Positions 3,001 to 44,779 of a DNA stretch of 64,000 nt are shown here, one piece after another; the first letter of the stretch is position 1, and each line of letters starts with the position of its first letter. The DNA is taken from positions 25,457-89,456 of the forward strand of contig JAZQUU010000034.1 of the NCBI GenBank assembly GCA_045631485.1. Reading direction: 5' to 3'. The notes under the pieces were generated by a model. That model was given only the letters and a program-made list of their open reading frames with translations, made no database searches and was not told where the DNA came from. Made by a program: the position numbers and the translations under genes. The stretch is from Clostridia bacterium (GTDB lineage: Bacteria > Bacillota > Clostridia > UMGS1840).

Positions 3001-3758
3001 TTGCGGAAGGAAGCTTTGATATCTTCCACAGTGGAGGTGTAGCCATTTTTATAAGCATCACTCAAATCACTATACGCACCGGGCCAGGTTAAAGGAGCTT
3101 CGGTGGGTTCCGGAGTGGGAGAAGGAATGGGAGTGGGAGTGGGAAGCTGCACGGGAGAATCCACGCTTTTTACTAAGGGTAAAAAGTCTAAGGATTTTTC
3201 TGCACCCTGTGCATCCAAACGCCCCATATCTAAAGCATTGATGATTGCATTGTTGTTCCCCATCAATTCGATTTTAATGATGTTTTTACCTTCTTTTAAG
3301 TAGATAGGCTGGTCCTGTAAACAACCGGAGCTCCAGCTGGGGGAGGTCAGATTGAACTGTGCCAGGTAATCTTCGTCGGTGGTAACGTGAACGGTGGTAG
3401 TGCCGTCGCCGCCAATCCATGCTGTGGACATCTGCAACGCATACACACCGGTGTAGGGAGCGGTAATTTCATAGTAACCCCAGTCACCCACTACCATGGT
3501 GAAGGAACCGTCTGCCCCAAAGGGAGCACCGGAGGATGCCTGATAGTCAACCCCGGCAACCGATTCGGTACCGTTAGATTTTGTGAAAGTGGTTAAACCG
3601 TAGTACTCACCCACATAGCCGTTTCTGTAGGAAGCGTCTAATGAGCTGAACTTACCGGTCCAGGTGGGGGTTGCCGCAGAAGCGGGCACTACCATTACGC
3701 TTGCCAGCATAGAAATCAACAAGCAGAATGATAATAATTTTTTCAATGCAATTTTCAA
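1..3758 (-). CDS. Secreted CBM-array / right-handed beta-helix protein, paralogue of 3837..8714 (C-terminus runs off the window start)
   Basis: Absent from the ORF track because it has no stop codon inside the window. Hand translation from TTG 3758 (GGAGGA 7 nt upstream) gives the signal peptide (M)KIALKKLLSFCLLISMLASVMVVPASA. Three tandem ~170-aa modules follow (AGVDYQASSGAPF...PYTGVYA(L/M)Q...QDQP(I/M)Y(L/F)K..GKN...SLDFLP(L/F)VK), each followed by a Pro/Thr linker. Then comes YVATNGKSSNDGLTPETPLASV...[27 protein letters not shown] and [29 protein letters not shown]. The frame stays open to base 3 (...VFKNCEFAN), colinear with [10 protein letters not shown] of the neighbouring paralogue. 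Confidence 0.85.
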   Translation of the reverse strand, partial: MKIALKKLLSFCLLISMLASVMVVPASAATPTWTGKFSSLDASYRNGYVGEYYGLTTFTKSNGTESVAGVDYQASSGAPFGADGSFTMVVGDWGYYEITAPYTGVYALQMSTAWIGGDGTTTVHVTTDEDYLAQFNLTSPSWSSGCLQDQPIYLKEGKNIIKIELMGNNNAIINALDMGRLDAQGAEKSLDFLPLVKSVDSPVQLPTPTPIPSPTPEPTEAPLTWPGAYSDLSDAYKNGYTSTVEDIKASFRNGADAVAGVDYQASSGAPFAANGAFTMIAGDWAYITVDMPYTGVYAMQIRTDWFSGTPVNWYVTTEDGYEATYNVTATSWSSGCKQDQPMYFKAGKNTFKLALNGSNNATVSSIDFGRLDATSAEKSLDFLPFVKVTGAPEPTPTPTPAPTPTPIPEAITKWIGNVKAEPAFNGYIGGFGMDAITGDVHMDETHLSGADFTMVNGEYATYTFNAPYTGVYGMQLLVKAIGGNTTIRVTSGDYYADYYLTQTGWTNGPMYQDQPLYFVEGANTIKIENIGTYSVMLSETDFGRLDKAGYDSTDYMQFVKKVADLPVATPEPTVAPTTAPTATPVPTAKPTPTPTPTPNITDSEYMITTEAESYTSASGVSKTTYDGAAVISAANESTSTYTVTVPDTGVYNLYLRGAAWKDVSVDITVDGTYLSYETMHFNLHKDEAYPIQSEKIYSLNLEAGTHTISFTYFCDVFYFDDFRLENTSSRTYHLLYGFKDATTSMEAYNILSEHGSLIGIDVASDTSGIFYPEMSFWPMVGKNFDSLDDMLSAYNSVIASEASSPTVKLYNASNVPVSKLPTGTARMIINTADMPANSTVVVAEYQGSKMVGNLNTLKTTSTTVTCTLSGLTAQSQVKVMVFSDIAEAKPYSSTGVYMNLYVATNGKSSNDGLTPETPLASVAQALNKVKSYNASMTGDIVVHVAPGVYRSNVTIEIDQTMGGMNGYKVIIKAEDPDNRPILSGGEPLTGKWKKVSGENYWVASTTTRETRALYVNGYQATLARSDVWYTGKDLIVPENPQNDVHVADGFVVDIERWDTTFPRTLGDDTRLQVVFQKNWANHRFPVEKITYGDYYGYEHAYIYIPFPRYHIFVNDDATTSTIQPTGSFYLENSMDLLDAPGEFFFDKDARKMYYYPYANEDMTTAETYCAVTDGLMTVTGVSATNKVTNIEFDGISFRYGAYDDATTNGVAFNQADDMRVGGEIWYGSYMFPAQVTLNYADSVVFKNCEFAN

Positions 3759-3836: not shown

Positions 3837-6800
3837 TTAATCAATGATAGCATCATCGGGAATGTGGAACATGGGAATTGTGCGCCAAGCAGGATAGTAA
3901 TCAACTTGTGCGGCACGGTCCTTATCTTCCACACCGGCTTCTGCCATAATTCTTAATGCTGTGGTTTTCCAAGATGTCTGATTGATGTAGTTGGTACCAT
4001 AGCTCACACCGGAAGTATCCATGGGGAAGGTGGCAAATCTTCTCGGGTCACCACCATCGGTGTGGTTATAAGCTGCATAGTTGTCATTTAAATTTACATA
4101 TTTTCTTGCAAAGAGCCAGAAGTCACCGGAATTGTTTGCTTTTTGTACCACGTTATCAGTCATTGCGATGTAACCGGTACCTTCGTCAAAGTAAACACCG
4201 CCGCGACGGTAGTTACCCGGGTCAATTAGGTAGTTATCATTTAAATGCATATTTTTCTGGTCGCCTAAGGTGTAAATCTGAGCACCGTCATCCAACACCT
4301 GGCAAACCTCTTCAATTTTATTGTAGGAAACAATGTGATTACCGGTGTCGCCGGGTTCGTAGTATCCCCAACCCCAACCGATACAGATGCCGCTGTAAGG
4401 TAGGTATTTGATGTCATTATGATGCACATTTACGGAATCCACATAATATGCTGCAACTGCAGGCAGATTCATAAATTCCTGTGCAATTCGGCGGAACACG
4501 TTGTTGCCGATTTCAATGTTCTTACAACGGCCGCCACCGGAGTAGTTACTGTTGTGAGTGAAATTGGAAACGGAAACGCCGCCGCCGGAAATATCGTGGA
4601 AATCGCAGTTTACCACTTTGGAATTGGTAACACCTTCTGTAAGATACATTGCAGAGGAGCCTAAGTTTGCAAATTCGCAACCGTCAAACACAACGGAATC
4701 TGCAAAGGCTACCTGAATCTGAGAATGCATCAAATGCTGAGAATAACCGGTTGCGGTACCGCGGCGAAGTTCATCTGTCTGGTTAAATGCTGCACCGTAG
4801 GTGGTGGCATCATCCCAGGCACCGTGTTTAAAGGAAATGTTTTTAAATTCCACATTTTCCACACGGTTTGTGGAAGAAGATCCCTGAACGGTCAATAAAC
4901 CGTCGGTTACTGCACAATAGGTTTCTGCAGTGGTCATATCCTCATTGGCATAAGGATAATAATACATTTTGCGGTTGGCTTTGTCAAAATAGAACTCGCC
5001 GGGCTCATCTAAAAGCGCCATAGCGTTTTCTAAGTAGAAGTCTCTGCCTTCCAAAGGTTGCACTGTGGAGGTGTGACCGCTTAACAACAAGGCATTGTAA
5101 TACGGATAGGTTGCATTGATGTAGGCATAGCTGGAATCGTAAGTCACGCTGTCAATGGGGAATCGCTGATTTGCCCAGGCTAAGTTGTAAACCATCTGCA
5201 ATCTGGTTTCCCCTGCCAGATCTTTGGGAAAATTAGGATAACTGGAAAGACTTACTTTTAGCCCGTCGGCAACATGGTATTCATTTTTCGGACTGGTGGG
5301 GGTGATGTATTCCCCATCGTAAACATTACTGCTTCTTGCCAGCACCGCCTGATAACCGTTCACATACAGGGCTCTGGTTTCACGGGTGGTGGTGGTTGCT
5401 ACCCAGTAATTCTTGCCGGAAACCCTGGACCATTTTCCGGTTAAGGGTTCCCCACCGGAAAGAATGGGTCTGTTATCCGGATCATCTCCCTGAATGATCA
5501 CCTTGTAACCATTCTGACCGCCCATAGTGGGTTCGATGTTGATGGTTACATTGCTGCGGTACACACCGGGTGCCACGTGAATGATAATATCCCCGGTCAT
5601 AGCGGAGTTTACGGATTTCACTTTGGTTAAGGCTTGTGCCACAGTTGCCAAAGGTGCATCGGGAGAGGTTCCTGCATTGGAGGAGCTGCCGCCGGGTGCC
5701 ACATAGAAATCCATATAAGTGCCGGAGGAGGTATAAGGAGTGATATCCTCCATATCGGTTAAGGCTAAAATTTTCAAAGTGCTTCCTGCTTGCACATCAG
5801 TTAAACTGAAGGAAACAGAAGAAGAATTGCTTTTTGCCGTCTGAGGCAGTTTTGCTAACTTGTTGCCGTCATAGATGGCACAAACTAAAGTGGTGTTGGT
5901 GGGAATATCTGCACAATCCACAGTAACGGTGGATTTGCCTGCGGGCAAGTCTGCCACCGACACGTTGGAAGCGTTTCTCACCTTTACGGTGGGATTTTCC
6001 AGTTCTTCGGCAAGCACTTCTTCATAGAGTGCCTTTAATTCTGCCGGAGTGGAATAATCTTTTCCAACCATTTTCCAGAATGCCATTTCGGGACAAGCTA
6101 AATCAGCAGTGTCGGCTGCCACATCCACATAGATGTAGTCCCCTGCGGAACGCAGTGCTTCATACATTCCCTGGGAGGTGGAAATATCTTTGATTCCGTA
6201 AAGAATCTGATATTCTTTGGAGTAGGTATCTTCTAAAGTGAAGGAATCAAAATAGTAGGTATCACAGTAGAAGGTGAATCCAATGGTATGTGTTCCTTTG
6301 GATAAGGGGAAGGTTGCCACACATTCTTCGTTGTAGGAGAAGGTGGAGTTTCTGTCACTCTGGAAATGAGCGGTTTCGTAGTAATATACGGTTCCGTCCA
6401 AAGCGATGTCAAAGGAAACATCCTTCCAGGCAGCGCCCTTCATATATAAGTTATAGATGGTGTCCTCTTCCACGGTTACTGAATAAGTAACACTGGATTC
6501 GGAAGTTGCGGTTGCCACAGAAGCACCGTTGTAGGTGGTTTTGGACAAGCTTCCGGATTTATAATTTTCTCCCTCATACACCGTTCTCATCGCTCTGTCG
6601 GAAACATCGGGGTTTACCGGATTGGGAGTCGCAGTGGGAGCCACGGTGGGAATGGGTGTATTGGTGGGAGCAGGAGTTGCGGTGGGGGTTGCAGTAGGAG
6701 TCGGCGTTTCGGTGGGAACAGGAGTTGCGGTGGGTTCGTCATCTTCACTTAACACTTTTAAATTCTGCAGATTAATCTGAGAACCCCATGTTTCGTGGTT

Positions 6801-8714
6801 TTTAATCCCATCGGAACCATCTGTCATAGACATTCTTAAGCCGTAAACAGCCGCAGTATTGGAACCGGTGTTCTTCACGGTTACAATGTTGGTGCCTTCT
6901 CTTAAGAACAGAAATTCCATATCCTGCTGTGCGGAATCTGCCCAACAGGTTGTCTGCCAGCTGTTACTTAAGGATTTATTCAATTCGGCATAAAAGCCGG
7001 TATCGGAAGACAATCGGAAGGTGTGAACCTTGTTATCGCAAACATTTAAGTAGGGATAAACAATCCCTGCCCCGTTTTTGGAAACTTCCGCCTGCAAGGT
7101 AACACTTGCACCTGGAGCTAATTCCACATACTGACCTGCAGTATCGGTTTTTGTACTGTAAGAACCGGAACCGCCAATCACATAGCTGTGAATACCGGTT
7201 GCGGTGCGTTCCCCAAAATAGGTATGCTCGGTAGCATAAGGAATGAAGGAAGTCTGCACATTGGAGAGCTTACTCATTCCGTTATTGCTCAACTTGTTGA
7301 TGGTGGGGGTGATATTGGTTTTACTTACGGAAAGTTTATTTTCCCCTTTGATCAGATAAATCACCTTGCCGTTTAAGAAACTGGTAGTCGCGGTAGAGCC
7401 GGTTTCGGCAGTGGTGGTCAAGGTGTTGGTAGTGCTGATGGAATATACCCCTGCATAAGGAGCATCATAGATATACACGCCCGCCGGTGTTGCTGTGGGA
7501 GCCGGTGTAGCGGTAGGTTTCACCGTCGGTGTAGGTGTTGCAGTAGGCTTCACCGTAGGAGTAGGGGTAGGAGTAGGAGTAGGAGTTGCGGTTGGTTTTA
7601 CTGTGGGAGTGGGTGTGGGCTTCACAGTAGGAGTGGGAGTGTTTGCAGGTGCCTTGGTGGGAGTGGGTGTGGGGCAGAATGTGGGAGTTGCGCCTTCTGC
7701 CGGCATATCGGAAACTTTTCTTACCAGAGGCAGAAAATCCAAAGAATCATAACCGGTGGCATCCAAACGGCCAAAATCGTAATCGGTCACCGTGAAGGTG
7801 GTATCACCCACATTGGAGATGACAATGGTGTTTACGCCTTTTTTAAAGTACATAGGCTGATCCTGCAAGTTATCGGGAATATTGGACCAACCTGTATATT
7901 CCATAAAGAATTCTGCGTAATAGTCACCGGACACTGCACGGATAACGCCGGTTCCATCTGATAACTCGGAAAGAAACAACTGCATTGCATACACGCCGGT
8001 ATAGGGAGCGTTAAAGGTGTAGGTGCCGTAATCGCCGGGTTCCATCGTAAAGGAACCGCTACTGATGTTGATAGCACTTCCGGAATAATCTCCGCTAAAG
8101 TCGGTGGCGGTGAAAGCTCCTATGTAGCCATTAAAGCCGGCTTCCCAGTCTGCTTTTCCCCACCAGGTGATGGTTTCTTCTTCCACATAGTCGGATTCTG
8201 AGCCGCTACCAACGGAAGAAGACAAAATCAGTTCACGGTAGTTAAAATAATTACCGTTATTTTTTATGATAATTTCGTTCACGCCTTGATTTAAGGGGAA
8301 GGAAACCAAATTTTCCAAATCAGTAAAATTCAAGGTGCCGGAAGTGGAAGGCAAGGTCACACTATACGCTTTGCCGTTCACCGTCACGGTGATGGAAGTT
8401 CTGGAGGAGGTTGCCGCATCTAAGGTTAAAGAATAGGTGCCTGCGTTTTCCACATTTACGCGGTAGGTCAGCCATTCGGAATTGAGCATTTCCACAAAGG
8501 TGCCGTAGTTTCCGCTGTAAACCTCCACGGGGTAGTATTTTTTTAAGTACCAGGTCTGGTCGAAGCCGTTGGGAGAGGTGTCACCATACTCCCCTTTGGT
8601 CAAACTGAAGTCGGTTGCTAAGATATGAATTTCGGTATAGGCGAACGCTGTGAGTGATGCAAGCATACTACATAGCATTGCAATTACAAGAATTGCAGAC
8701 AATAATTTTTTCAT
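3837..8714 (-). CDS. Secreted 1625-aa multi-module protein: signal peptide, several CBM-like beta-sandwich modules separated by two long Pro/Thr linkers, C-terminal right-handed parallel beta-helix (glycanase/lyase-like) module
   Basis: ORF track. The N-terminus [25 protein letters not shown] is a signal peptide. CBM6/35-style signatures are present ([20 protein letters not shown]..; [22 protein letters not shown]). PT linkers sit at about aa 340-405 and 660-690. The beta-helix N-cap is [53 protein letters not shown], followed by the motifs [23 protein letters not shown] and DGAQIYTLG. Confidence 0.85.
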
Positions 8715-9015
8715 AGTTTTTGCCCTTTCGATGATTTTTTGGATCGTTATAAATCATAGATGTCGCAATTCTACAGAGGAAACGTCCTCCAAAATTCTCA
8801 TCGGATTCAAAAAAATCGGGAGAATTTTTCCTCAATAGAGTTACCATACGGGGGATTTTTTGCTAAGGGTTAACATTCGGGTCGGCAGGAGCAAAGTACT
8901 CCTGCCGAGTCCCTCTTGTTTGTTCTTTTTGGTATTCGCGAAAAATCAAACTAGAATCCGAAAACCGAACCTTAATTCTTTTTTTCATCGGGCGAAGAAA
9001 ATCAAACTATATTTT

Positions 9016-9080
9016 GCAAACCGAACCCGACGGGGTCATCCGAAGGCGTACTTGCGTGTACGCCGAGCGATGAGGTTTGC
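9016..9080 (-). repeat. Copy 1 of a ~65-nt structured intergenic repeat (three-stem element), 25 nt downstream of the stop of 9106..12174
   Basis: The minus-strand reading is GCAAACC-UCAUC-GCUC-GGCGUAC-ACGCAA-GUACGCC-UUCG-GAUGA-CCCCGUCGGG-UUC-GGUUUGC. Related copies lie at 12427, 42939, 44468 and 44571. The ORF-track peptides here (..NRTRRGHPKAYLRVRRA..) are just translations of this repeat. Confidence 0.75.
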
Positions 9081-9105
9081 GGAATAGAGAAAGATTTTCA
9101 AGCCA

Positions 9106-12100
9106 TTAGAATACGGGTTTCAGTTCGCCGTCAGCACTCCAAACAAATACTTTAATAATATCGGTCTGATAGGGTTCGTAGCCTTCTAAGGTTACGTAAA
9201 CGGGCTGATAGGTGAAGGTCTGTTCTTCGTATTCTAAGTAGCCTTCAGCAGTCTGATATAATTTGGTGATGTTGCCTGCTTCGTCACCTTCGTATACTGC
9301 AACGTATACAGCGGTGCCGATTTCGTTCCAGTCACCAACCTGAACGGTGTAGGTTAAGCCCATACCGTCATCACTTGCTGCAACGGAAATCATATTTTTC
9401 GCAAAGTCGTAAGCGTCTAATACGTCCTGATAGGTTTCGTATGCGCCTGCTTCCAGCATTGCACAGTTCAACAGTGCTGCGTAGGAATATTCGGGATATA
9501 CGAAATCGGTATCCACATTTGCACCGATATCTGCTCTTAAAACATCGGAGTAATCATCTAAGATTGTTGCGATGTCAGAGGTGGTTACTGCGGTCTGCAT
9601 AGCTGCTAACAGTAAATCCTGACGGGTTAAAGTGGTGAACTCAAAACCGTGGATATGAGAGAGCATTTCGCTGGTAGAACCAACGTCTTTGTTTTCGGTG
9701 AAGGTGAAGGTCATGGTGTATTCACCTGCGGGGATGAAGATTTTATCTTCGGTTAAGGTAACGGTGTTATCCTGGTTCTGGTTACCGAAGTAGGGAGTCA
9801 GGCCATCAAAGATTACGATAGGTTCGTTTGCACCGTCATCTAAAGTAACGTTTACGGTGGGAGTCAACGGAACCGTACCTGCCATAACCAGACCATAGTA
9901 ATCATCTCTGGGGATGTTTACGGTGTAGGTTAAAACTTCGGTATCAACTACGGTGTTGTTGGTATTACCAACGTGGATACCGTAGTAACCGTTACGAACG
10001 GTGTATGCGGGGATATCCAGCGGATTTTCAGCAGCACCGTCAAAGTTATGTGCCTGAACGAATACTCTGGTAGGAGTATCGGTGGTATCTTCCACGTGAG
10101 TTAAGGTAATGGTGGGCAGGTATAAGAAGCCGGCACCGTCATTACGAACCCAAATGGAGTTAACGCCTTCTTTTAAGGTTAAGCAGCTATCACTGGAGAA
10201 ATTCTGATATACAGGATTTTCTGATGTGGAATTCTGAGAAGCGTTAATGGTTGCGATAGAATCTTCGGTTTCGAAAGATAACTGAACATCAGCATTGTAA
10301 ACAGCGGTGTTTACAGTAACCTGATAAGAACCTGCAGTTTTTGCAGTTACTTCAAATCTCTGCCATTCCCATTTCACTAATTCAGTACCGGAAACGGTGT
10401 TCAGAACGGGCAGGCCGTCTGCAGTGTGAACCATATTGTAGTCCACTCTGGGAGTATCTAAGATAGAATCGGTTGCGGGGTAAATTCTTAAGGGTTTGGT
10501 GGGTGCTAAGGTTACATCATCGATGGTGATGTCTTCCAATTCTGCGGGAGATAATGCTTTGAAGGTTACCTTCCACAGAATAAAGTGAGAATGGCTGGAA
10601 GTTACTAAAACTTCGTTTTCACCTGCATGTAAGAACATGTACTGAACATTGCCTTCAGCATCGGTGGTACGGGTCTGAGGAACGCCGGAAGCATCTTCAC
10701 CCCAGTCACCTGCGAAGCCGGTTGCAAAGGAAGCACGGTAGGTATCTTCCACGTCAACATAAATGTTGGGATAGGGTTCAGACATGGTACCGCCCACAAC
10801 AGTTTCCACTCTGTAGAAGCCGTCTTGTGCAACGGTTACGGTGTAACCTGCGGTGGAGCCGCCGCCAACAGTAGAAGCGTTGTAGGTTACATACTGAGAA
10901 ACGCTACCCTGAGTTTTGGTGGCATCTAACTCATTGTAACCGCCTAAAATAATGTCGGTATAGTTGGGGTTATAAGCAACTAAGCTGTCTAAGTCAAATT
11001 CCTGAGCTAAATTTTCTAAAGCTAAAACAGAAGCTTTGATTTCTAAGTTGTATAAGCAGCATCCGTTGGCGGGAGCAAATTTCACGGTGTTGTCACCTTC
11101 GTATAAGTAGATATACGCTTTGCCGCCCCAAACGCTGTCACTACCGAATGCCCAAGCAGTTAAGCTTAATTCCTGCTGATATTCATCGTTTACGATAACT
11201 TTTGCAGAAGTGGTAGTGTTGGTTTTTAACTGCACATAATACATACCTTCTTCTGCTACGTTAATGTTGAAGTTACCGGTGTAGCCTGCGGATACCCAAA
11301 CGGAGCCGTCAGCCTGAGCTGCAGCGCCGGTACCGTCATCGTTGTTTAACAGAGTTGCGGTTAAAGCAGCACCGCTTAAGTTTAAGGAATTAAAGGTGAT
11401 ATATTCGGGATAACCGCTTACATCGGGAGTTGCGGTCGGTTCGGGAGCTTCATACTGAGGAGCAAATCTGTCAGCATCGAAGCAAATGCCGGTGGAGTAA
11501 CCTGCGGTATCAGAAATTCTGAAATCGTTTACGGTAATCCAATGATCAGCAGTATTGATTGCTTTAACGGTCTGTTCACCTGCTCTTAAGTATACCCATT
11601 CCATATCGCCGTCGTCACCGTTTACACACCAACCCCACTGATAATGCTGGGTTACGCTGGACATACCGGTTTCATATTCGAATACGATTTTTGCATTGGT
11701 GGGAGAAGAAGAAAGCTGCACGTTAATGTAATACATACCGGATTCGGGAATGTTTACATTGTAGGTGTAGGTAGCACCGGGACCGATTTCTGCATCATAA
11801 TGATGCATGGTCTGAGTGGTTAAGAGGTTATCAAAACCATTGTGTGCCACTGTATCAAATTGGTCTAAGCCCTGGTTTTCAAGTTCGGTAAAGGTTAAGG
11901 TTGCAGGAGTGTCAACAGATAAGGTGTTGGCACCTTTTAATAAAAAGATGTTTCCTGCTTCACCTGCGGTCAATTCAGCATAATGACCGGTTTCATTTTG
12001 CAAAATAACATCCTGGTCGGAAACAACCTGGAAAACACCTGCATAAGGAGCTTCCACAGAAAGTTCGGATTCAATATAAACACCGGAATCCGCGGTGGTT

Positions 12101-12174
12101 GCTGCAGTGCCGATAAAAGTCATCATGCTAAGCAGCATGCAAACAGTTAAAAGTACGCTTAATACTTTTTTCAT
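9106..12174 (-). CDS. Secreted 1022-aa non-catalytic CBM-array protein with a conserved ~190-aa C-terminal domain of unknown function
   Basis: ORF track. The signal peptide is MKKVLSVLLTVCMLLSMMTFIGTAA. Repeated beta-sandwich-like modules are present (PESGMYYINVQL.., AEEGMYYVQLKT.., QDGFYRVETVVGG.., TAGSYQVTVNTAV..). No beta-helix module is present. The C-terminus FEFTTLTRQDLLLAAMQ...YTVQVGDWNEIGT...IKVFVWSADGELKPVF is shared with 12510..15965. Confidence 0.8.
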   Translation of the reverse strand: MKKVLSVLLTVCMLLSMMTFIGTAATTADSGVYIESELSVEAPYAGVFQVVSDQDVILQNETGHYAELTAGEAGNIFLLKGANTLSVDTPATLTFTELENQGLDQFDTVAHNGFDNLLTTQTMHHYDAEIGPGATYTYNVNIPESGMYYINVQLSSSPTNAKIVFEYETGMSSVTQHYQWGWCVNGDDGDMEWVYLRAGEQTVKAINTADHWITVNDFRISDTAGYSTGICFDADRFAPQYEAPEPTATPDVSGYPEYITFNSLNLSGAALTATLLNNDDGTGAAAQADGSVWVSAGYTGNFNINVAEEGMYYVQLKTNTTTSAKVIVNDEYQQELSLTAWAFGSDSVWGGKAYIYLYEGDNTVKFAPANGCCLYNLEIKASVLALENLAQEFDLDSLVAYNPNYTDIILGGYNELDATKTQGSVSQYVTYNASTVGGGSTAGYTVTVAQDGFYRVETVVGGTMSEPYPNIYVDVEDTYRASFATGFAGDWGEDASGVPQTRTTDAEGNVQYMFLHAGENEVLVTSSHSHFILWKVTFKALSPAELEDITIDDVTLAPTKPLRIYPATDSILDTPRVDYNMVHTADGLPVLNTVSGTELVKWEWQRFEVTAKTAGSYQVTVNTAVYNADVQLSFETEDSIATINASQNSTSENPVYQNFSSDSCLTLKEGVNSIWVRNDGAGFLYLPTITLTHVEDTTDTPTRVFVQAHNFDGAAENPLDIPAYTVRNGYYGIHVGNTNNTVVDTEVLTYTVNIPRDDYYGLVMAGTVPLTPTVNVTLDDGANEPIVIFDGLTPYFGNQNQDNTVTLTEDKIFIPAGEYTMTFTFTENKDVGSTSEMLSHIHGFEFTTLTRQDLLLAAMQTAVTTSDIATILDDYSDVLRADIGANVDTDFVYPEYSYAALLNCAMLEAGAYETYQDVLDAYDFAKNMISVAASDDGMGLTYTVQVGDWNEIGTAVYVAVYEGDEAGNITKLYQTAEGYLEYEEQTFTYQPVYVTLEGYEPYQTDIIKVFVWSADGELKPVF

Positions 12175-12426
12175 AACAATTTCGTCCTTTCGTTTTTTAA
12201 AGTATGATCAATTTTTTGTCAATAGAAATTGTCTTGCTTTTTCCTTTTCGCGAGTTGTATTGAGAAAATACAAGTTTTTCGGGTGGGGCAAGGGAAATCC
12301 CCTGCCCCATCCAATGAAAATACGGGGTTTTGGAGCTTTGCTTTTAAGCTATGCTCCTGTTTTCTTTTGTTCGCTAAAATCGAACAATTCTTTTGTTCAC
12401 AGGTGAAGAAAATCGAACTAGAATTC

Positions 12427-12490
12427 GAAAACCGAACCCGCAGGGGTCATCCGAAGGCGTACCTTGTGTACGCCGAGCGATGAGGTTTTC
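12427..12490 (-). repeat. Copy 2 of the structured intergenic repeat, 19 nt downstream of the stop of 12510..15965
   Basis: Minus-strand reading: GAAAACC-UCAUC-GCUC-GGCGUAC-ACAAG-GUACGCC-UUCG-GAUGA-CCCCUGCGGG-UUC-GGUUUUC. The outer stem differs from copy 1 by a compensatory pair (C:G becomes A:U). Confidence 0.75.
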
Positions 12491-12509
12491 GGATTATAGG
12501 AAGATTTTT

Positions 12510-15500
12510 TTAGAATACGGGTTTTAAGCCGTCGATGCTATCCCATACAAATACTTTGATTACATCGCCGTCTTCGGGAACATAGTCGTATAAGGTTGCT
12601 TCTACGGGTACATAGGTGCCCATGGATTCTTCGTATTCCAGATAGCCTTCGCCCATCATGTAGAGCTGATCGCCTGCATAAACTGCAACCAGTACGGTGG
12701 TGCCGATTTCGTTCCAGTCACCAACCTGAACGGTGTAAACCAAGGAACCGGTACCGTCGTCTGCAACGGAAATCATATTTTTCGCAAAGTCGTAAGCGGT
12801 TTTTACGTCTTCATAAGTTTCGTAAGCACCGGTTTCCAGCATTGCGCAGTTTAATAATGCATTGTATGCATATTCGGGGTAAATGAAATCGTTTTCTAAA
12901 TCTGCACCGATATCGTCTGCCAGAACATCTGCATATTCTTCTAAAGCAGCTTTGATATCATCGGTATCTTCTGCAGACTGCATAGCAGCTAACAGTAAAT
13001 CCTGACGGGTTAAGGTGGTGAATTCGAAACCATGAACGTGAGTCAACAACAGGGAGTTGCCGCTACCTACTTCATTGTTTTCAGTGAAGGTGAAGGTCAT
13101 GGTGTAATCGCCTGCGGGCAGATATACTTTATCAGCAGTTAAGGTGATGGTGTTATAGGTGTTTTCGTTACCGAAGTAAGGAGCAACATCATCGTATAAA
13201 ACGATATCATCAGTTCCGTTGTTTAAGGTAATGGTAACTTTACCGGTTAAGGGCATGGTGCAGCTCATTAACAGACCATAGTAATCATCTTTTAAGATAG
13301 AAACATTGTACTGTTTGGTTTCGGTGTTTGCTGCAGCATCGTCGGTATCACCAACATGGATACCGAAATGGTTGTTACGAACGGTGTAACGTTCGATATC
13401 ACCGATGTTTTCGGGGGCACCGATAAAGTCATGAGCAGGAACGAAAGTTCTTGCAGAGGTTTCTTCGGTATCTTCCACATAAGTGAAGCTTACTTCTTTT
13501 AAGTAGAAGAAGCCGGAGCCTTCATTCTGAACCCATACATTGTTCACGCCTTCATTCAGATATACACAGTCACCGGAGAAGGTTCTGTAGTTATCGGGGC
13601 TGGTAACGTGATGTACGGTTGCAATAGAACGGTCGGTTTTTACGTTGATATCAACTTCGCCGTTGTAAACTGCTGCGGTGGTAGCTACCTGATAGTAACC
13701 TTCCACTTTTGCATTCAGTTCAAATCTCATCCATTCGCCAGGTACTAATTCAGCGGTCAGATAATTTTCGTTGTTGTTCAGGGAAGGACCGGTTAAGTCG
13801 GTTCTGGTTAAGAAGTAGTCCACGTTTCTCACGTCGGTGATTGCATCTCTTGCAGGTCTGATAGACAACGGTTTGGGAGGTGCAAGTTTTAAGTCTTCCA
13901 TGGTAATGGAAGCTGCTTCTTCTTCAGTTAACTGAACGAAACGAACTTCGTGTAATACCTGATGGGTATGAGCGGTGAACACTTCCACAAAGTTGGTGCC
14001 TTCTGCTAAGTAAACATACTGATAAGCGCCGTCAGCGTCTTTGTTACGCCAGGAACCCCAGTCATCTGCATAAGCAGTAGCCAGCTGTGCACGATAGGTT
14101 TCGTTTACATCAACGGTACAAAGCGGATACGGAGAGCTTATAGTACCACCGATATTTGCTTCCACTCTGTAAATACCGGGGAAGAATACTTCCACTTCGT
14201 ACTGAACGGAAGAACCTGCGTACTGAACGATTGCCTGACCATTGTCATAACCCCAAACAAAGTATCCGGAACCGGTGGTGCCAACGATATCTTTGGAAGG
14301 AATGATGGAAATGTCGTAAGCTTCTTCGGGTAAATCGTTTACATTTTCTCTCTGGCTTAAATAATCGTTGGAATTATTCAGCTGATAGAAGGTTGCGCTG
14401 ATAAAATCAGTACCGTTAGAACCGGTTGCGGTGATGATGTTATCACCTTCGGACAGATAGATGTACTGAGGATCTAATTCGTCTAAATCAAAGGTAACAT
14501 AATCCAAATCCTGGGTAGTTAAGGTTAAGGTGCCGTCACCTTCTGCAACAGCTTCCACTAAGTACATACCGGAAGCGGGAGCGGTGATGGTGTATGCTGC
14601 CCAAATATCGTTGGACAGGTCAAAACCGTTTTCAGTATAAGGAATGTTTAAGAACAGCTCATCAAATTCGGAACCAACATTGTATCCGTCGGTACCGGAG
14701 GTATAAGCGCCGGTCCAGTCACCACAGTCACGAACGTTACCGGTCCAACCATCGGGCCAAATGCTGGTGGTGTCATCGTCGGTGCCAACGTACTGCATGT
14801 AAGAATCGTTGTTGTTTAAGCCACCAAAGTCGTTTTCAAAGTAAACGATGCCGTTGGGACCTGCATTATAAATGGTGATTTCGTTGGAACCTGCCTGTAA
14901 GTACAGGAAATCGTCAATATTTAAGCTTGCATTGTTGGACCAGGTTGCAGCCCAGGAGTTTAAGTTTTTCACATTGTATTCTGCATAGTAGTTAACGCCG
15001 TCAACGTTGTTAATCATCTGCAGGGTAGTTGCACCGCCTGCGGTACCAACTTTTACCTGTGCAGCATAAACGCCGGAGGTTGCAATGTTATTTAAGGTGT
15101 AGGTTGCGGAAGAACCTGCGGGCAGGTACACACCATTGTTCTGACCCTTGGAGGGGAAAGAACCGGTTTCGCCAACCATCCCCCAGTCAGTACCGAATAA
15201 TTCAGTACCTTCATCGGAAGACATATTGAGCATATAACCTTCGATGGTTAATGCATCTTCATCAAAGTTAACGTCGGGATGATTTTCCACAACGCCGTCC
15301 CATCCTTCGGGGAAATATACCTTGGGAGTGGGAGTGGGTTCGGGAGTGGGAGTGGGTCTCAAAGAGGGATCCTCTAAATCAGAAGCTAATTTAACTAAGG
15401 GTAAATAATCTAAAGATTTTTCTGCGCCGGATGCATTTAATGCACCAAAGTCAATGCAGGAAAGAATAGCATTATTGTCGCCAACTAACTGTACTTTAAT

Positions 15501-15965
15501 GGTATTTTTACCTTCTTTTAAGTAAATCAGCTGGTCCTGGTTACAACCGGAGCTCCAGCTACCCTGGGTAATATGGAATTCTGCAGCATAACCTTCTTCG
15601 GTGGTTACCTGATAAGTGATGGGAAAGCTGTTTGCCCAGTCGGTTTTCATCTGCATTACATAAACGCCGGTGTAAGGCATATCAACATCGAAATAAGCCC
15701 AGTCACCATGTACCATTACAAAGTAACCGTTTCCACCCCAAGGAGCGGAAGAGGATGCCTGATAGTCAACACCTGCAACTGCAGCGTCGCCATTGCGGAT
15801 TGCCGCTTTAATGTTACCTACAGTGGAGGTATAACCATTTTTGTAAGCAGCGTCTGCACTGTTGTAGGAACCTGCGAATGCAGGAGTTGCCGCGAATACA
15901 TTTGTGAAGCTTACCATGCTGAGTAACATACAGATGGTTAAGCAAATGCTAATAAGTTTTTTCAT
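12510..15965 (-). CDS. Secreted ~1150-aa non-catalytic CBM-array protein, paralogue of 9106..12174
   Basis: The ORF track gives 12510..16013. I prefer the ATG at 15965 (MKKLISICLTICMLLSMVSFTNVFA signal peptide, AAAGGA upstream). The N-terminal module matches the 1..3758 modules (AGVDYQASSSAPWGG..PYTGVYVMQMK..NQDQLIYLKEGKN..KSLDYLPLVK plus a PT linker). The C-terminal ~190 aa is near-identical to that of 9106..12174, and a 35-nt identical DNA run occurs at 9381..9415 and 12764..12798. Confidence 0.8.
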   Translation of the reverse strand: MKKLISICLTICMLLSMVSFTNVFAATPAFAGSYNSADAAYKNGYTSTVGNIKAAIRNGDAAVAGVDYQASSSAPWGGNGYFVMVHGDWAYFDVDMPYTGVYVMQMKTDWANSFPITYQVTTEEGYAAEFHITQGSWSSGCNQDQLIYLKEGKNTIKVQLVGDNNAILSCIDFGALNASGAEKSLDYLPLVKLASDLEDPSLRPTPTPEPTPTPKVYFPEGWDGVVENHPDVNFDEDALTIEGYMLNMSSDEGTELFGTDWGMVGETGSFPSKGQNNGVYLPAGSSATYTLNNIATSGVYAAQVKVGTAGGATTLQMINNVDGVNYYAEYNVKNLNSWAATWSNNASLNIDDFLYLQAGSNEITIYNAGPNGIVYFENDFGGLNNNDSYMQYVGTDDDTTSIWPDGWTGNVRDCGDWTGAYTSGTDGYNVGSEFDELFLNIPYTENGFDLSNDIWAAYTITAPASGMYLVEAVAEGDGTLTLTTQDLDYVTFDLDELDPQYIYLSEGDNIITATGSNGTDFISATFYQLNNSNDYLSQRENVNDLPEEAYDISIIPSKDIVGTTGSGYFVWGYDNGQAIVQYAGSSVQYEVEVFFPGIYRVEANIGGTISSPYPLCTVDVNETYRAQLATAYADDWGSWRNKDADGAYQYVYLAEGTNFVEVFTAHTHQVLHEVRFVQLTEEEAASITMEDLKLAPPKPLSIRPARDAITDVRNVDYFLTRTDLTGPSLNNNENYLTAELVPGEWMRFELNAKVEGYYQVATTAAVYNGEVDINVKTDRSIATVHHVTSPDNYRTFSGDCVYLNEGVNNVWVQNEGSGFFYLKEVSFTYVEDTEETSARTFVPAHDFIGAPENIGDIERYTVRNNHFGIHVGDTDDAAANTETKQYNVSILKDDYYGLLMSCTMPLTGKVTITLNNGTDDIVLYDDVAPYFGNENTYNTITLTADKVYLPAGDYTMTFTFTENNEVGSGNSLLLTHVHGFEFTTLTRQDLLLAAMQSAEDTDDIKAALEEYADVLADDIGADLENDFIYPEYAYNALLNCAMLETGAYETYEDVKTAYDFAKNMISVADDGTGSLVYTVQVGDWNEIGTTVLVAVYAGDQLYMMGEGYLEYEESMGTYVPVEATLYDYVPEDGDVIKVFVWDSIDGLKPVF

Positions 15966-16062
15966 AAGTCTGATGTCCTTTCTTTTTTTGCTTGTTTTTA
16001 GTGTTATCCACAAAAATAGTAGGAGACATCGTAAAGGATGTAAAACTTTTGTTGTGATGCCT

Positions 16063-16090
16063 CCTTACCCTCGGGAATCCGAAGGTAAGG
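16063..16090 (-). other. Strong 12-bp stem-loop between the SLH enzyme gene and the next CBM-array gene (possible RNA processing/stability or weak termination site)
   Basis: The minus-strand RNA is CCUUACCUUCGG-AUUC-CCGAGGGUAAGG (12 bp including one G:U). No U-tract follows it, so it is not a canonical intrinsic terminator. Confidence 0.35.
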
Positions 16091-16134
16091 AAGCTTTGCA
16101 TTCTTACGATAGTCCTTAAAATTTTGAACTATAA

Positions 16135-19100
16135 TTATTTCGCAGTGAAACGATGTAAAACGGTGGTCGCTTCTGCTCTGGTCAAAGTGTTTGCGGGACG
16201 GAATGCGCCGTCTTCGTAACCTTCGATCAATTCCAGTTCAATTGCGCCGAATACTGCGTTTTTGTACTGGCTGCTGATTGCATCTTCATCGTTGCAGTAG
16301 CCTTTGTCAACCACGATAGAGTAGTTACCGCGTCTTGCTTTATATGCTCTCATCACGATATCAGCAAAACGTTCTCTGGAAACGAGAGCATCGGGTTCGT
16401 CAACAGAAGTTAACATACCCAGTTCTGCTGCCTGAACTTTCCAATCGGTATCATCAGCAGATTTGTTTAAGGTTCTTAAGGTAATCATACAAGCCTGATG
16501 TAAGCTTACGGTATCATTGGGACCGAAGGTTCTTTCATCATAACCTTTTACATAACCAGCATCAGCCATGTCTAAAATGGTGTAGTATGCCCAGTGACCG
16601 TCGATATCCTGGAAGCCATTTTCGTAACGTGCTAACAGAGTTGCCTGGTCAATGATTTTACCTTCATCATAGTTGGGGTCGTCTTTTACAACTTTACCGC
16701 TGTCTAATTTGAAACCACCAACCATGGAGTCGTTACCACGAACTTCCACTTTCAGCACGTGTTCACCTTTGGTTAAGTAAACGGTGCCAATTTCGAATTC
16801 GGATAATGCCCAGCTACCACGGGTAATCAAGAAGTCCTGAACAACAACTTCGCCGTCTAAGTAGATACCCTGAGTACATTCGGGACCGCCGGTCCAACCG
16901 TCAGATGCACGGATGTACAGTTTGTAGTTACCTTCTTCTTTTACGTCAACATTGAAGGATACCCATTCACCGGGATGAGTGTCACCTAAGTGACCGCCGG
17001 GATATACGGTGGGTTTCGCATGGGTGATTTCGTTAAAGTCGTCATATTCTTCAGCTAATACCCAACGGTTGGTGTCTAACACTTCGCCGGTATCATATCC
17101 ATTGTTTGCATAACGATCCCAAGCGATAACTCTCCATTCGGGATATTCAGCTTCTTTTAACAGATATTTGTACTGAGCTTCAACACCTGCTTCAGCCATA
17201 ACTTTCTGAGCAGGTTCAGGCCATTTGCCGTCTAATACTTTTACAGTGTTGATTTCTTCGTTGTAGAAGTTGTTATCATCGATAACACCGTATTCAGCAG
17301 AGAAACCGCTGTTGGGGTTATCAATGTAGTTGTTGATTGCTTTGTTCCATCTTAACAGCGCGCCTGCACGGAAATACAAGGGGCTTTCTGCTCTCTGGAT
17401 AACGTTACCTTCTGCGGTAAGGAAAGCAGAACACTGGTCAAGATAGATACCTCCACGCCAGTCGCCTGCGTCTACTAAGTGGTTGAAGCTGATGGTGGAA
17501 TCAGGCATCCAACCTAAGGTGTAAACGTGCGCACCGTCATGGTTTCTGTGAGTTACGTTTTCAATGTAGTTATGAGTTACATGGATGTTTCTAACTTCTT
17601 CAGGTCTCCATACACCCCAACCCCAACCAACGGAAACACCGGTATAGGGAACGTCTCTTAAGTCGTTGTGAGTGAATACGGTGTCAGCGATGTAGTAAAT
17701 CGCAACACCTGCGGAACCACACTGTTCGTATGCTGCACGGCGGAATACGTTATTTTTGATTAAGATGTTGTCACAACGTTCTTCGCCGTCGGGCAAAGTT
17801 TCTTTATGGCTGTGGTCCCCTGCTACTAAAGCGGTGGAAGCGATATCGATAAATAAGTTACCGATAACGTTGGTGTAGTGAACACCGTTGTCTAAGTTTA
17901 AGCCGTTGGCACCTAAACAAGAGAATTCACAGTTTTTAATGTCGATGTATTCAGCAAAGTTAATGGTAACGTTTGCTTCTTTCATCACTTCGCGATACCA
18001 AACTGCATCATCGGTAGATGCAATGATTAATTCGTCAGTCTGGTTTTCAACAACACCTTCATCGGACATTTTGTTGTATGCACCGTATTTGAAGGTAATG
18101 TTGTTGAATTCAACATTTGCCACTTTAGACTGCATGGTGCTACCTTTCATGGTCAGCAAGCTGTCATTCACAGGTGCCCATACATCAGCAGTGGTCATAT
18201 CTTCCTGGTCGTAGGGATAGTAGTAGATTTTTTTGGTTACTTTGTTGTAGTAGAATTCGCCGGGTTCGTCCAATAATTCGAAAGCATTTTCGATGGTGAA
18301 CACGTCGGAGGGGTCAATCTGTAAGTGAGATGCCACTAAAGTGGTAGCGGTTGCCCATACAGGCTGATGCATTTTGAAGGTAACCACTTTACCATCGTTC
18401 ACGATAGAATCAACGGGAGTTCTCTGAGTGGTCCATAATATAGGCCAAACAATCATAACATCTTCCGGATTGGTGAATTCTTTGGGGAAGTTGGTTACAG
18501 AAATCTGGAAACCGTCGGAGTTATATTTGCTTCCTTCAATTTTGTAAAGACTGTTCATCGCGTACTGATAACGGCTTCTCGCCTGCACTGCAGGGAATTC
18601 GTTAATGTACAGATGTCTTACATATTCGGTACCCAGATGGCTTGCATCAGCAACCCAGATGGGGGATCCTTCCTGTTTTTCCCAACCGGTAATCTGTTTA
18701 CCACCGTTCATAACAGGGGGATTTAATAAATCGTCACCTTTGTAGATAACTTTGTAACCGTTACGGCCGCTGATTTTTTCGTCCATCTGGATTTCGGTCA
18801 TAACAGGATAGTTACCACCTGCAAAATGAACTACGATATCGCCGTCCATTTCCAGAGTGTATTTTGCAACTTCTTCGTTTGCTCTCTGCCAGGTTGCAAA
18901 GGGAGCAGCTTTAGAACCGTCATTATCGTCACTTCCGTTGGGAGCCACATAAATGTCTTTGTAAACATTTGCCAGCAGCTTCACTTCTTCTTCGGTGGAT
19001 TCTTCGATAGGTTCTTTCAAATCTTCTAATTTGTAGCTTTCTGCATCGGTTTCAACAAGCTTGATGTAGTCTAAGGTTGCGCTCTTTTCGGGGCAAACCA

Positions 19101-36919: not shown

Positions 36920-36996
<77 letters not shown>

Positions 36997-42822: not shown

Positions 42823-42848
42823 AAATGGAATAAAAGAACATAGAACGC

Positions 42849-42886
42849 AAAAGGCATGGGATTTTTTCTCATGTCTTTTGTTTTTA
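42849..42886 (+). terminator. Intrinsic terminator of the sugar operon
   Basis: AAAAGGCATGGGA-TTTTT-TCTCATGTCTTTT is a 13-bp stem with two G:U pairs, followed by GTTTTT. Confidence 0.7.
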
Positions 42887-42938
42887 AGGTGAAATTGTTT
42901 TGGCAAACAATTTGATTAAAATGCCTTTTGCTATGAAC

Positions 42939-42997
42939 CAATCAAGCCTCTCGGCGTACCGATGTACGCCTTCGGGTAACCCCTGCGGGCTTGATTG
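42939..42997 (+). repeat. Copy 3 of the structured intergenic repeat (opposite genomic orientation; again 3' of the upstream ORF)
   Basis: The plus-strand reading is CAAUCAAGCC-UCUC-GGCGUAC-CGAU-GUACGCC-UUCG-GGUAACCCCUGCG-GGCUUGAUUG, with a 10-bp perfect outer stem. It is embedded in a ~100-bp segment (42902..43001) that is the inverted counterpart of 44565..44669. Confidence 0.7.
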
Positions 42998-43287
42998 ATT
43001 CATTCTATGTCCTTTTCTTTCCATTTTTCCAAAAATATCAACATACGGAGTATAGAACTTCTTCGCTTCTGCATCATTTTTCCTCTCATTTTGGTTCTAT
43101 ATAACTGAATATCAAAAGATAAAAAAAGGTATGGAATTTATTTTCATACCTTTTGTTTTGCCTTTTGCGGTCTATGTCCTTTTCTTTTCATTTTACAATG
43201 AGGTAAAAATGCACATAGGCAAATAACTTCACATCTAATGCAGGCTCTGCCTGCCACTGCAATTCTTCATTATTCATTTTTCATTAT

Positions 43288-43460: not shown

Positions 43461-43530
43461 TCAATTTTTCATTTTATGCGGGTTATTTCCGACTTTTTTC
43501 CGATGATGAATAACTTTGCTAAAAAACAAG

Positions 43531-44330: not shown

Positions 44331-44467
44331 AACATATCACCTGCCTGTAAGAATCAAATAAGGGAGGAGCAAGCCCCTCCCCGATAATGAATAGTGAAGA
44401 AATTAGTGAAAACAAATTTTCCTTCTTTTTCTTCGTCTAAAGCGATGAGAAATGGATGCAAAACAGA

Positions 44468-44540
44468 GAAACTGAACCCGCAGGGGTTACCCGAAGCCGT
44501 ACGAATCACATCGAGTTTTTTGTACGCCATCTTGCAATCC
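44468..44540 (-). repeat. Copy 4 of the structured repeat, degenerate (expanded central loop)
   Basis: The plus strand is GAACCCGCAGGGGTTACCCGAAGCCGTAC-(19 nt)-GTACGCCATCTTGC. It shares the GAACCCGCAGGGGTTACCCGAAG arm with the other copies, but the central stem is weakened. Confidence 0.5.
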
Positions 44541-44570
44541 GTAAAACGCAGAGAAAATTGCCGAGAATTC

Positions 44571-44634
44571 GTCAACCGAGCCCAACGGGGTTACCCGACG
44601 GCGTACCGAGTGTACGCCGAGTGGCAAGGTTGGC
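44571..44634 (-). repeat. Copy 5 of the structured intergenic repeat, 3' of the rubrerythrin gene
   Basis: Minus-strand reading: (GC)CAACC-UUGCC-ACUC-GGCGUAC-ACUCG-GUACGCC-GUCG-GGUAA-CCCCGUUGGG-CUC-GGUUG(AC). The inner stem UUGCC/GGUAA replaces UCAUC/GAUGA of copies 1 and 2, which are compensatory changes. Confidence 0.7.
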
Positions 44635-44779
44635 GGATAGCAAAAGGCATTTTGATTTAAACTTGTTTCTTTTGAACCAATTTTACACCTCATCCACCGC
44701 TTACGCGGTCCCCCTTCCCCTCAAGGGGAAGGCAGTGTATCACTATGCCTTTTGCGGTGTCGGTAATTTTATCAAGTTT

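Follow-up and report, generated by a model that had tools for sequence, protein, structure and literature searches.

A candidate REP/BIME-like mosaic repeat module with a covarying branched hairpin at gene 3' ends of uncultured gut and rumen Clostridia

The repetitive extragenic palindromic (REP) sequences and bacterial interspersed mosaic elements (BIMEs) of Enterobacteria are high-copy imperfect palindromes of 3'-untranslated or intercistronic regions, near stop codons, and were proposed to act in mRNA 3'-end protection and termination (PMC3733652). An element with the same kind of copy number and location was characterised in a 64,000-nt stretch of DNA (the window) from Clostridia bacterium (Bacillota; Clostridia; UMGS1840; GenBank assembly GCA_045631485.1, contig JAZQUU010000034.1, positions 25,457 to 89,456, forward strand). 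Like REP/BIME, it has an apical GGCG/CGCC-type stem with internal mismatches, occurs singly, in tandem or as a mosaic with other short motifs, and is a hot spot for indels. The reading that we favour, and to which we give about an even chance, is that of a REP/BIME-like mosaic repeat module at gene 3' ends in uncultured gut and rumen Clostridia, forming a hairpin at the 3' end of the sense RNA.

The element differs from REP/BIME in several respects. REP sequences are simple hairpins of 20-40 nt, whereas the element is a three-way structure of ~90 nt set in a domain of ~200 nt. The GTAG/CGTC tag of REP (PMC3733652) is absent: the flanks are GCTAYGAAC and GTCCRTTCTG, and CGTC occurs only within the KTCG loop, when K is G. 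About 80% of copies share one orientation, clusters are mostly head-to-tail, a T-run lies at a fixed distance, and the apex is conserved while the stems vary between copies of one genome. A RAYT gene is flanked by REPs; here, no transposase domain was detected in the window genes scanned or in the neighbours of copies (up to 8 kb). Given its size, its flanks and its branched hairpin, the element is not a tagged REP, and a survey of tagged REPs reported no families in Firmicutes, including Clostridia (PMC3733652).

Three other classes were compared. Like intrinsic terminators (including the weak NusA/NusG-dependent ones of Bacillus subtilis, and tandem or bidirectional ones), the element lies in sense orientation just past stop codons, has an A-tract/hairpin/U-tract order in which the A-tract pairs with the U-tract, and is often accompanied by a second, canonical terminator (T1); unlike them, its hairpin is very long, branched and conserved in sequence across loci and species, and its U-tract starts 8-10 nt past the stem. 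The miniature inverted-repeat transposable elements (MITEs; Correia/NEMIS, ERIC, BOX/RUP, bcr1) are likewise intergenic and multi-copy, with subfamilies and internal indels; they measure 100-250 bp, have a long inverted-repeat character and are co-transcribed with their neighbours (PMC2229807). MITEs have conserved ends and a target duplication, whereas the element has a conserved centre, a compensated outer stem and no duplication seen. To our knowledge, it has no parent insertion sequence. Integron attC sites are also structured imperfect palindromes at stop codons, oriented with the gene, forming gene-site arrays and conserving unpaired bases; they are 60-140 nt long with a variable central hairpin. 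Their R''/R' consensus is RYYYAAC / GTTRRRY. The basal CAGAAC/GTTCTG and GAACAAAC/GTTTGTCC pairs of the element do not fit it, conservation is apical and not basal, the neighbours include housekeeping genes and convergent pairs, and no integrase was seen among them. The element stands outside the tagged REP families, attC, strict MITEs and any Rfam family.

A first-pass annotation had placed five copies in the window, and all five were recovered at those positions with a core pattern and with a covariance model over the whole window. The core GGCGTAC-N3-8-GTACGCC occurred exactly four times (9045, 12456, 42953 and 44600; 0.00 expected, 100 shuffles). The covariance model (R1) was trained on 38 family members and run over the full window with filters off; beyond the five copies it gave no match above 14 bits. 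The length of 60-65 nt first assigned to the copies was too short: the element spans ~90 nt, with a longer outer stem (P1), and copies 3 and 5 also have an upstream box (see below). The absence of a clear U-tract, also claimed, was an error, as the window copies carry a T-rich tail (GATTTTCTTC, CCTTTTCTTTCC or AATTTTCTCT) 8-12 nt past P1. The copies and their tails are:

9002..9093, minus strand: copy 1, three-way-junction (3WJ) module (R1 74.4 bits, E 4e-20)
8994..9003, minus strand: T-rich tail of copy 1, GATTTTCTTC on the minus strand (from the sequence; positioned as the family T-run)
12413..12503, minus strand: copy 2, 3WJ module (R1 81.7 bits)
12405..12414, minus strand: T-rich tail of copy 2, GATTTTCTTC (from the sequence and the fold)
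42924..43013, plus strand: copy 3, 3WJ module (R1 88 bits, E 2e-24)
43010..43030, plus strand: T-rich tail of copy 3 (homology to related genomes stops at 43028-43029)
44453..44555, minus strand: copy 4, degenerate, with a 16-nt apical-loop insertion and a mismatched stem (R1 25.4 bits)
44557..44647, minus strand: copy 5, 3WJ module, downstream of a rubrerythrin gene (R1 79 bits)
44550..44559, minus strand: T-rich tail of copy 5, AATTTTCTCT (from the sequence)

Copies 1 and 2 lie among the minus-strand genes 12510-16013, 9106-12174 and 3837-8714 and are sense to the genes whose stops they follow: copy 2 begins 19 nt past the stop of gene 12510-16013 and copy 1 begins 25 nt past that of gene 9106-12174, distances that the first-pass annotation had given correctly. 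The two copies are 91-94% identical to each other, and the duplicated genes upstream of them 76-78%. Copy 3 lies downstream of gene 41443-42822 (plus strand), and copies 5 and 4 lie downstream of the rubrerythrin gene 44780-45331 (minus strand).

When each copy was folded in the direction of its upstream gene, RNAfold agreed with the arrangement drawn earlier: P1, stem P2a, an NCUC/KUCG internal loop, a 7-bp apical stem and a CCC/GGG hairpin (P3). Across the family, the branched structure measures 75-120 nt, with 26 modelled pairs in four helices around a conserved core, CTC-GGCGTAC-loop-GTACGCC-KTCG. The CCC/GGG hairpin exists, with two amendments: P3 is a 5-bp AACCC/GGGTT stem of 4 to ~40 nt, and it is missing in some copies. 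It arises from a conserved TC/TC internal loop, and copies without it are plain long hairpins. Copy 2 had a predicted free energy of -35.4 kcal/mol (z -3.95), its post-stop A-run pairing with the T-run.

The earlier observation that stems vary while keeping their pairing held at family scale, with strong covariation: pairing was kept in 90.6% of cells of the model-fitted alignment, and none of 500 shuffles matched the observed covariation score. Double-sided changes were found at all 11 P1 pairs, all five P3 pairs and three apical pairs. With the partner slid by one column as control, pairing fell to 37-38%, and a seed alignment made with MAFFT alone gave the same covariation behaviour. The apical stem, described at first as invariant, covaries too in copies outside the search pattern, where GGCGTAC/GTACGCC is replaced by the compensated GCTGTAC/GTACAGC, GCTGTAT/ATACAGC or GCCGTAC/GTACGGC. 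The unpaired CTC and KTCG stay constant, also in copies that the search pattern did not pick. Constant loops and covarying stems together indicate that a folded single strand, not a duplex operator, is the functional form.

The 5' ACC has two possible partners, a proximal and a distal GGT. Covariation links column 23 to the distal GGT (AU 26, GC 9), the proximal one giving only wobbles, and column 24 to the proximal GGT (CG 31, UA 6), with only wobbles distally. On the sense strand, these alternative pairings wobble as G:U. A 13-14-nt indel between the GGT repeats, which deletes P3 in related genomes, explains the duplicated pairing partner.

Multi-copy alignments with long flanks extended the element into a larger post-stop domain. 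A conserved box directly follows the stop codon (e.g. GGGATGTTAAAAAAGTCCAGAACGCAAAAAAG in locus L076) and is an inverted repeat of the junction flanks, in the arrangement CTTTTTTGC / junction / GTTCTGAAGCTTTTTTCCCTATCCC. Its start lies 1-5 nt past the stop in window copies 3 and 5 and in the three L076 copies whose stop could be read. The stretch from box to junction is A/T-rich and very variable in length; among copies of one genome the inter-box regions are wholly different, and the boxes and junction are retained. The boxes, designated U+ (upstream) and U- (flank unit), are inverted repeats of ~25-40 nt (repeat pair I5: 42 nt, 81%). Copy 5 has the same layout as copy 3, while copies 1 and 2 lack U+ and consist of junction and tail only. 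The parts of the domain and the neighbouring remnants are:

42827..42857, plus strand: upstream box U+ of copy 3, 4 nt past the stop codon at 42820-42822 (repeat pairs I5 and I9)
42848..42885, plus strand: canonical terminator hairpin T1, CAAAAGGCATGGGA/TCTCATGTCTTTTG plus T-run, with two sense-strand G:U pairs
42894..42911, plus strand: small hairpin ATTGTTT-TGGC-AAACAAT between T1 and the junction
44745..44779, minus strand: upstream box U+ of copy 5, directly past the rubrerythrin stop (repeat pair I9)
43159..43190, plus strand: flank unit U- uninterrupted, TGCCTTTTGC-GGTC-TATGTCCTTTTCTTTTC, i.e. the 3WJ flanks without a 3WJ (repeat pair I5)
43059..43098, plus strand: tail, CTTCGCTTCTGCATCATTTTTCCTCTCATTTTGG, of a decayed further copy (95-97% identical in L120 and L133)
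8932..8970, minus strand: truncated remnant of another copy, with the P1 3' strand and tail only (repeat pair I8)

The upstream box of copy 5 pairs with ATGCCTTTTGC at 44640-44650. The 216-nt domain of copy 3 had a predicted free energy of -82.4 kcal/mol (z -8.1), the A-rich post-stop segment pairing with the tail and closing the domain. At the site that matches the decayed copy at 43059..43098, the related genome L120 retains a weak 3WJ.

A run of at least 4 T was found 8-10 nt past the last P1 base in 72 of 97 family copies, and no T-run lay at that distance on the opposite strand. T-rich windows downstream were present in 71 of the 97 on the element strand versus 32 on the other. The U-tract is interrupted (TTNTTT kind). 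A simple terminator scan did not call the element; its T-run, 8-10 nt past P1, is reached by predicted A/U-rich stem extensions. The canonical terminators of the window are short and of different sequence (e.g. 43564-43531, 47518-47498 and 48057-48023).

Genomic context was counted for 104 copies with crudely called open reading frames (ORFs), and 97 of them were intergenic. The claim that copies are always sense to the upstream gene stands for the window (five of five); tabulated over the family, 69 copies were sense and 15 antisense (69/84, 82% sense). Convergent gene pairs flanked 26 copies versus 4 for divergent pairs, and between co-directional genes 29 copies were sense versus 9 antisense. 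The orientation bias is therefore strong and not absolute. In L076, copies lie 40-75 nt upstream of the next start codon, within apparent operons.

A collection of 596 Gb, with one genome per species, was scanned with the pattern CTCGGCGTAC-N3-8-GTACGCCKTCG, and at least 119 loci were obtained. The sources of the listed loci were mostly gut, rumen and faecal metagenome-assembled genomes (MAGs) of Clostridia, Congzhengia, Acutalibacteraceae, Oscillospiraceae, Ruminococcus and Eubacteriales. With R1, the first 99 loci and the window together yielded 118 matches and another 27 loci yielded 30; among these were copies that depart from the exact pattern, and some 8-kb stretches held several copies. 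Five copies lie within 8 kb in L076, and tandem arrays were found in L062, L054, L048, L088 and L116, and in the window (copies 4 and 5). The element is combined with U boxes, T1 and GGGAGG-type hairpins into mosaics, and many copies lie at contig ends.

The tandem array of four copies in L062 starts ~3 nt past a stop codon and is directly followed by a Gut-1 RNA (RF01706, 79 bits) at 2555-2631 (minus strand) and a weaker, inverted Gut-1-like copy (46 bits) at 2455-2537 (plus strand). Gut-1 consists of three hairpins spaced by GUGAAAU, and may be another module of such a mosaic.

Known families and mobile replicons were searched as well. The window was compared with Rfam 15 at gathering thresholds, and no family matched the element; the sole match in the window was one tRNA gene at 36920-36993 (plus strand; 69 bits). 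At E<=10, the segment 8800-9200 gave nothing on the element, and in fourteen family loci only Gut-1 and tRNAs matched, none on the element. BLAST searches of plasmid and phage collections returned no match and the pattern occurred in six viral loci only, so a plasmid or phage origin was rejected. No transposase or recombinase was found beside any copy examined (window genes scanned and pre-annotated neighbours, up to 8 kb around copies). The junctions examined showed no target-site duplication and no clean presence/absence allele; allele differences were replacements, tandem duplications or internal indels. A full-text literature search with the core sequence and for Clostridial intergenic repeats, which covered the first 200 of the 408 supplementary files of PMC8040213, returned no description of the element.

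Orthologous loci were located through homologues of the protein encoded at 41443-42822, the gene upstream of copy 3. In the related genomes, the proteins were 98% identical, the coding-sequence DNA was 89.6-91.7% identical and four-fold sites had diverged by 27-33%. These genomes therefore represent related species, not strains. A description of these neighbours as conspecific was rejected on the strength of a nucleotide identity of 83-92%, and the differences in gene order are accordingly interspecific.

Compared with the window, the 207 nt past the stop showed 98.5% identity in L134 and 92.7% in L136; in these two genomes, four-fold sites of the adjacent coding sequence differed by 27-28%. 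Over the following 200 nt, identity was 59.0% and 53.4%, respectively. BLAST homology to the related genomes stopped at 43028-43029, where the T-rich tail ends. T1 and the small hairpin showed compensated changes between orthologues; in the small hairpin these were AATTTGT/ACAAATT and AAATTTGC/GCAAATTT, fully compensated. By these comparisons, the whole domain is under strong purifying selection, or else is homogenised. Other relatives differed at the same site: in L133 and L122 the junction has another P1 variant and lacks P3, in L120 an additional copy lies immediately past the stop and a 60-nt double hairpin is inserted within the apical loop, and the copy 4 orthologue in L133 lacks the 14-nt P3 module. 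In these relatives, the element has the appearance of a dynamic mosaic repeat, with module indels, swapped stems, tandem arrays and nested hairpins. In species whose protein was 80-87% identical, no element followed the gene orthologous to 41443-42822.

Gene order past the element cluster (42823-43600) also differs in L120, L133, L134 and L136, all of which encode the 459-aa protein at 98% identity. The gene sets found there are ZIP plus rubrerythrin, a 358-aa gene plus fucose isomerase, or a 122-aa gene plus a two-component system. Exact-protein look-ups with the window rubrerythrin (two start choices) and the ZIP protein gave no match. Upstream of the DUF4432 and isomerase-like pair, gene order differs among related genomes as well.

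The first-pass annotation had proposed a selected RNA- or DNA-level structure, with a 3'-untranslated element for stability or processing, a protein-binding site and a REP-like element as options, and the covariation, the orientation bias and the negative Rfam result support this. The domain consists, in order, of the post-stop A-rich box, an optional canonical terminator hairpin, the branched hairpin and the interrupted U-tract. In the mechanism that we favour, the sense transcript would fold as a single strand and the domain would form the 3'-end structure of the upstream mRNA, acting as a weak intrinsic terminator assisted by factors (possibly NusA/NusG) and also barring 3'-to-5' exonucleases. 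The constant apex (7-bp stem with the CUC/KUCG and UC/UC loops) may dock a putative trans-acting factor. We infer that the element is transcribed, that it acts as terminator or stabiliser and that a factor binds it; the manner in which its copies spread is likewise a matter of deduction.

The evidence as to strand is mixed. A sense transcript is favoured by the orientation bias, by the proximity of stop codons, by the T-run and by the sense G:U pairs of T1 and of the ACC/GGT pairings. The G:U evidence for strand choice had been called contradictory from the window copies, and it is still so with ~100 copies: G:U counts do not decide between RNA and single-stranded DNA.

Several observations weigh against the sense-RNA 3'-end hairpin. 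In 71 of 82 copies, the fold of the opposite strand is the more stable one (by a mean of 3.7 kcal/mol); the reason is that the sense strand has pyrimidine-pyrimidine and A.C at the conserved mismatches, and the other strand G.A and G.U. In P1, A.C was counted 91 times and G.U 23 times. The long-armed relatives in other phyla have 71 versus 82 G.U on their two strands, as for a DNA-level palindrome. The antisense copies (~18%) are real, and some share an intergenic cluster with sense copies. With a C-interrupted T-run 8-10 nt from P1 and an A/U-rich looped helix, the element is a poor canonical terminator, and where T1 is present most transcripts should end before the junction. Moreover, neither a mobilising enzyme nor a binding protein has been assigned to the element.

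The main rival reading, which we hold to be the less probable, is a single-stranded-DNA element: the hairpin may be the recognition structure of a mobile or recombining DNA unit, read through its unpaired bases by an HUH/Y1 transposase (RAYT, IS200-like) or an integrase-like recombinase, in the manner of REP, IS608 ends or attC sites, and its gene-end location would then reflect target choice (terminator-like flank units), not RNA function. The IS608 TnpA transposase and the IntI integrase read hairpins through conserved unpaired bases while the stems covary, which is the combination seen here. The lack of an overall strand bias of G.U and A.C and the better fold of the antisense strand also speak for such a DNA hairpin, as do the "empty" flank units TTTTG^CGTTCT (L076) and 43159-43190 (window), set beside a filled form TTTTG[CTAYGAAC..GTTTGTC]CGTTCTG without target duplication. 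The same site holds different junction variants in related genomes, the L120 apical loop carries an inserted hairpin module, gene-element-gene-element arrays occur in L076 and the window, gene order past the element differs in related genomes, and the same apex tops long hairpins of other phyla. However, no transposase or recombinase gene adjoins any copy examined, target-site duplications and clean alleles are lacking, and the extra copy of L120 resembles replacement or duplication of a repeat unit. Conservation of the 207-nt domain, spacers included, far above the neutral rate would be unexpected for a resident selfish insertion. Within one genome, copies also differ in their inter-box regions and retain the boxes and junction; transcription is suggested by the T-run at its fixed distance and by the sense G:U pairs of T1; and viral contigs rarely carry the element (6 loci), which is unmatched in the plasmid and phage collections.

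A dedicated regulatory RNA module, in which the junction binds one RNA-binding protein or RNase and the ACC pairings possibly form a switch, seems unlikely to us. It would account for loop bases (CUC, KUCG, UC/UC) more conserved than the covarying stems, for the maintenance of both ACC/GGT pairings, for the strong purifying selection and for the L076 copies 40-75 nt before the next start codon in apparent operons. It does not fit the flanking genes, which are unrelated (glycoside-hydrolase-like giants, a sugar-isomerase-like protein, rubrerythrin, a ZIP transporter), nor the P3 module and alternative pairing, which are dispensable (several copies lack P3); the copy number, tandem arrays, decayed copies and module indels suit a repeat family better, and there is no candidate protein.

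A duplex DNA operator or roadblock, with GGCGTAC-N4-GTACGCC as a 7-4-7 palindrome for a dimeric protein, is highly improbable: the half-sites do form a perfect inverted repeat with a short spacer that reads the same on both strands, but they change with compensation, the spacer measures 4-6 nt (one copy has 16 nt inserted), pairing runs 30-55 nt to either side with covariation, and orientation is biased.

Further candidates were tried and rejected. The element had been judged non-coding, and indeed the reading frame through the core differs between two copies translated by hand; coding on the opposite strand, considered for the RBS-like GGAGG/AGGA plus ATG that many copies have in their conserved 3' flank, was dismissed since the frame is not conserved, and the P3 insert (4-40 nt) and apical loop (4-6 nt) vary regardless of frame. 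For an antisense small RNA, the only promoter-like match was a weak TGGAAA-18-TAGAAT on the minus strand at 43031-43002, and in L076 the next start codon is just 40-75 nt away. An origin of P1 by insertion into host hairpins is contradicted by the conservation of P1 and its flanks across species (GCTAYGAACAAAC...GTTTGTCCRTTCTG). Comparisons with the loop E/sarcin-ricin, PyrR, RAT, ANTAR, hammerhead and hairpin ribozyme cores and 16S helix 45 gave only partial or chance resemblance. A K-turn (a 3-nt bulge followed by tandem sheared G.A pairs; both strands inspected) was rejected because the antisense GA/GA and CGAA/GAG loops have no 3-nt bulge beside the GA step.

Among the pattern matches listed, about 20 came from other phyla, namely from Bifidobacterium ramosum, B. 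leontopitheci, Fibrobacter/Fibrobacterota, Selenomonadales, Saccharibacteria, Acidobacteria, Proteobacteria and others. In these, the core tops an imperfect hairpin of 100-140 nt (-45 to -81 kcal/mol), usually just past an ORF, with arms that are unrelated in sequence and still complementary. Some may be chance matches, as a hairpin halves the information of the pattern and the collection is large (596 Gb), and a few inside long ORFs of high-GC genomes clearly are. A flanking TTCACC...GGTTCA was, however, common to Bifidobacterium and a Helicobacteraceae MAG, and the two Fibrobacterota matches had arms in common. It is conceivable, if rather doubtful, that a conserved, putative trans-acting factor recognises the constant apex (CUC-GGCGUAC-loop-GUACGCC-KUCG, in many cases together with the UC/UC loop and ACC/GGU below it), and that this hairpin is used across phyla; such a reader might be a protein that binds RNA at mRNA 3' ends, or else a DNA enzyme specific for hairpins.

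Other features were recorded around the copies. A second repeat family consists of small G+C-rich hairpins, GCCTTCCCC-TTGA-GGGGAAGG followed by CCGCG-TAA-GCGG, with GGGAGGGG/CCCCTCCC variants. They were found in the window at 44690-44740 (minus strand), 43400-43421, 44361-44382 and 43284-43330, and in L120 at ~5040-5100. One sits between the box and the junction of copy 5, and in L120 one sits within the apical loop of the copy 3 orthologue. A near-identical double hairpin is a candidate motif in supplementary file 75 of PMC8040213.

The rubrerythrin gene upstream of copy 5 is accompanied by a 52-aa rubredoxin-like ORF (45382-45540, minus strand) and a flavo-diiron-type protein (45565-47361, minus strand) with ODP/lactamase_B, flavodoxin, flavin reductase and rubredoxin domains; this set is an oxidative-stress cluster typical of strict anaerobes. 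A 30-nt inverted repeat (47491-47520 / 47921-47950, 93% complementary), with a terminator-like hairpin GCTCCCTTTACACAAGGGAGC in each arm, brackets a 122-aa ORF at 47521-47889. Degenerate periodic repeats of 6-12 nt (GGAGTGGGAGTAGGAGT, plus strand) at 1953-3164, 6618-7688 and 15319-15371 would encode Pro/Thr-rich linkers of the giant minus-strand proteins (GH141, beta-helix, CBM6/35 and SLH domains), whose genes are partly paralogous (repeat families D3-D12). After gene 16135-20079 (minus strand), the interval 16050-16104 holds no element and has another hairpin (GATGCCTCCTTACC..GGTAAGGAAGC), in which R1 matched a bare stem (12.9 bits).

Most of the catalogued REP-like repeats are from Proteobacteria, and the element is abundant in uncultured gut and rumen Clostridia (Congzhengia, Acutalibacteraceae, Oscillospiraceae and relatives), where the family apparently has not been described. 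For practical use, it can serve as a marker of gene 3' ends in MAGs of its carriers, and it will confuse ORF callers and repeat-sensitive assemblers. Cultured carriers are Bifidobacterium ramosum DSM 100688, B. leontopitheci LMG 31471 and Christensenella intestinihominis AF73-05CM02. Should a factor be shown to bind the apex across phyla, this would give direct access to a new 3'-end pathway, and the hairpins would represent a new, widespread class of 3'-end element, possibly spreading by the insertion of hairpins into hairpins. Its abundance, and a conservation at orthologous sites far above the neutral rate, make it likely that the element shapes mRNA 3' ends, operon polarity and genome rearrangement in organisms that lack any genetics.

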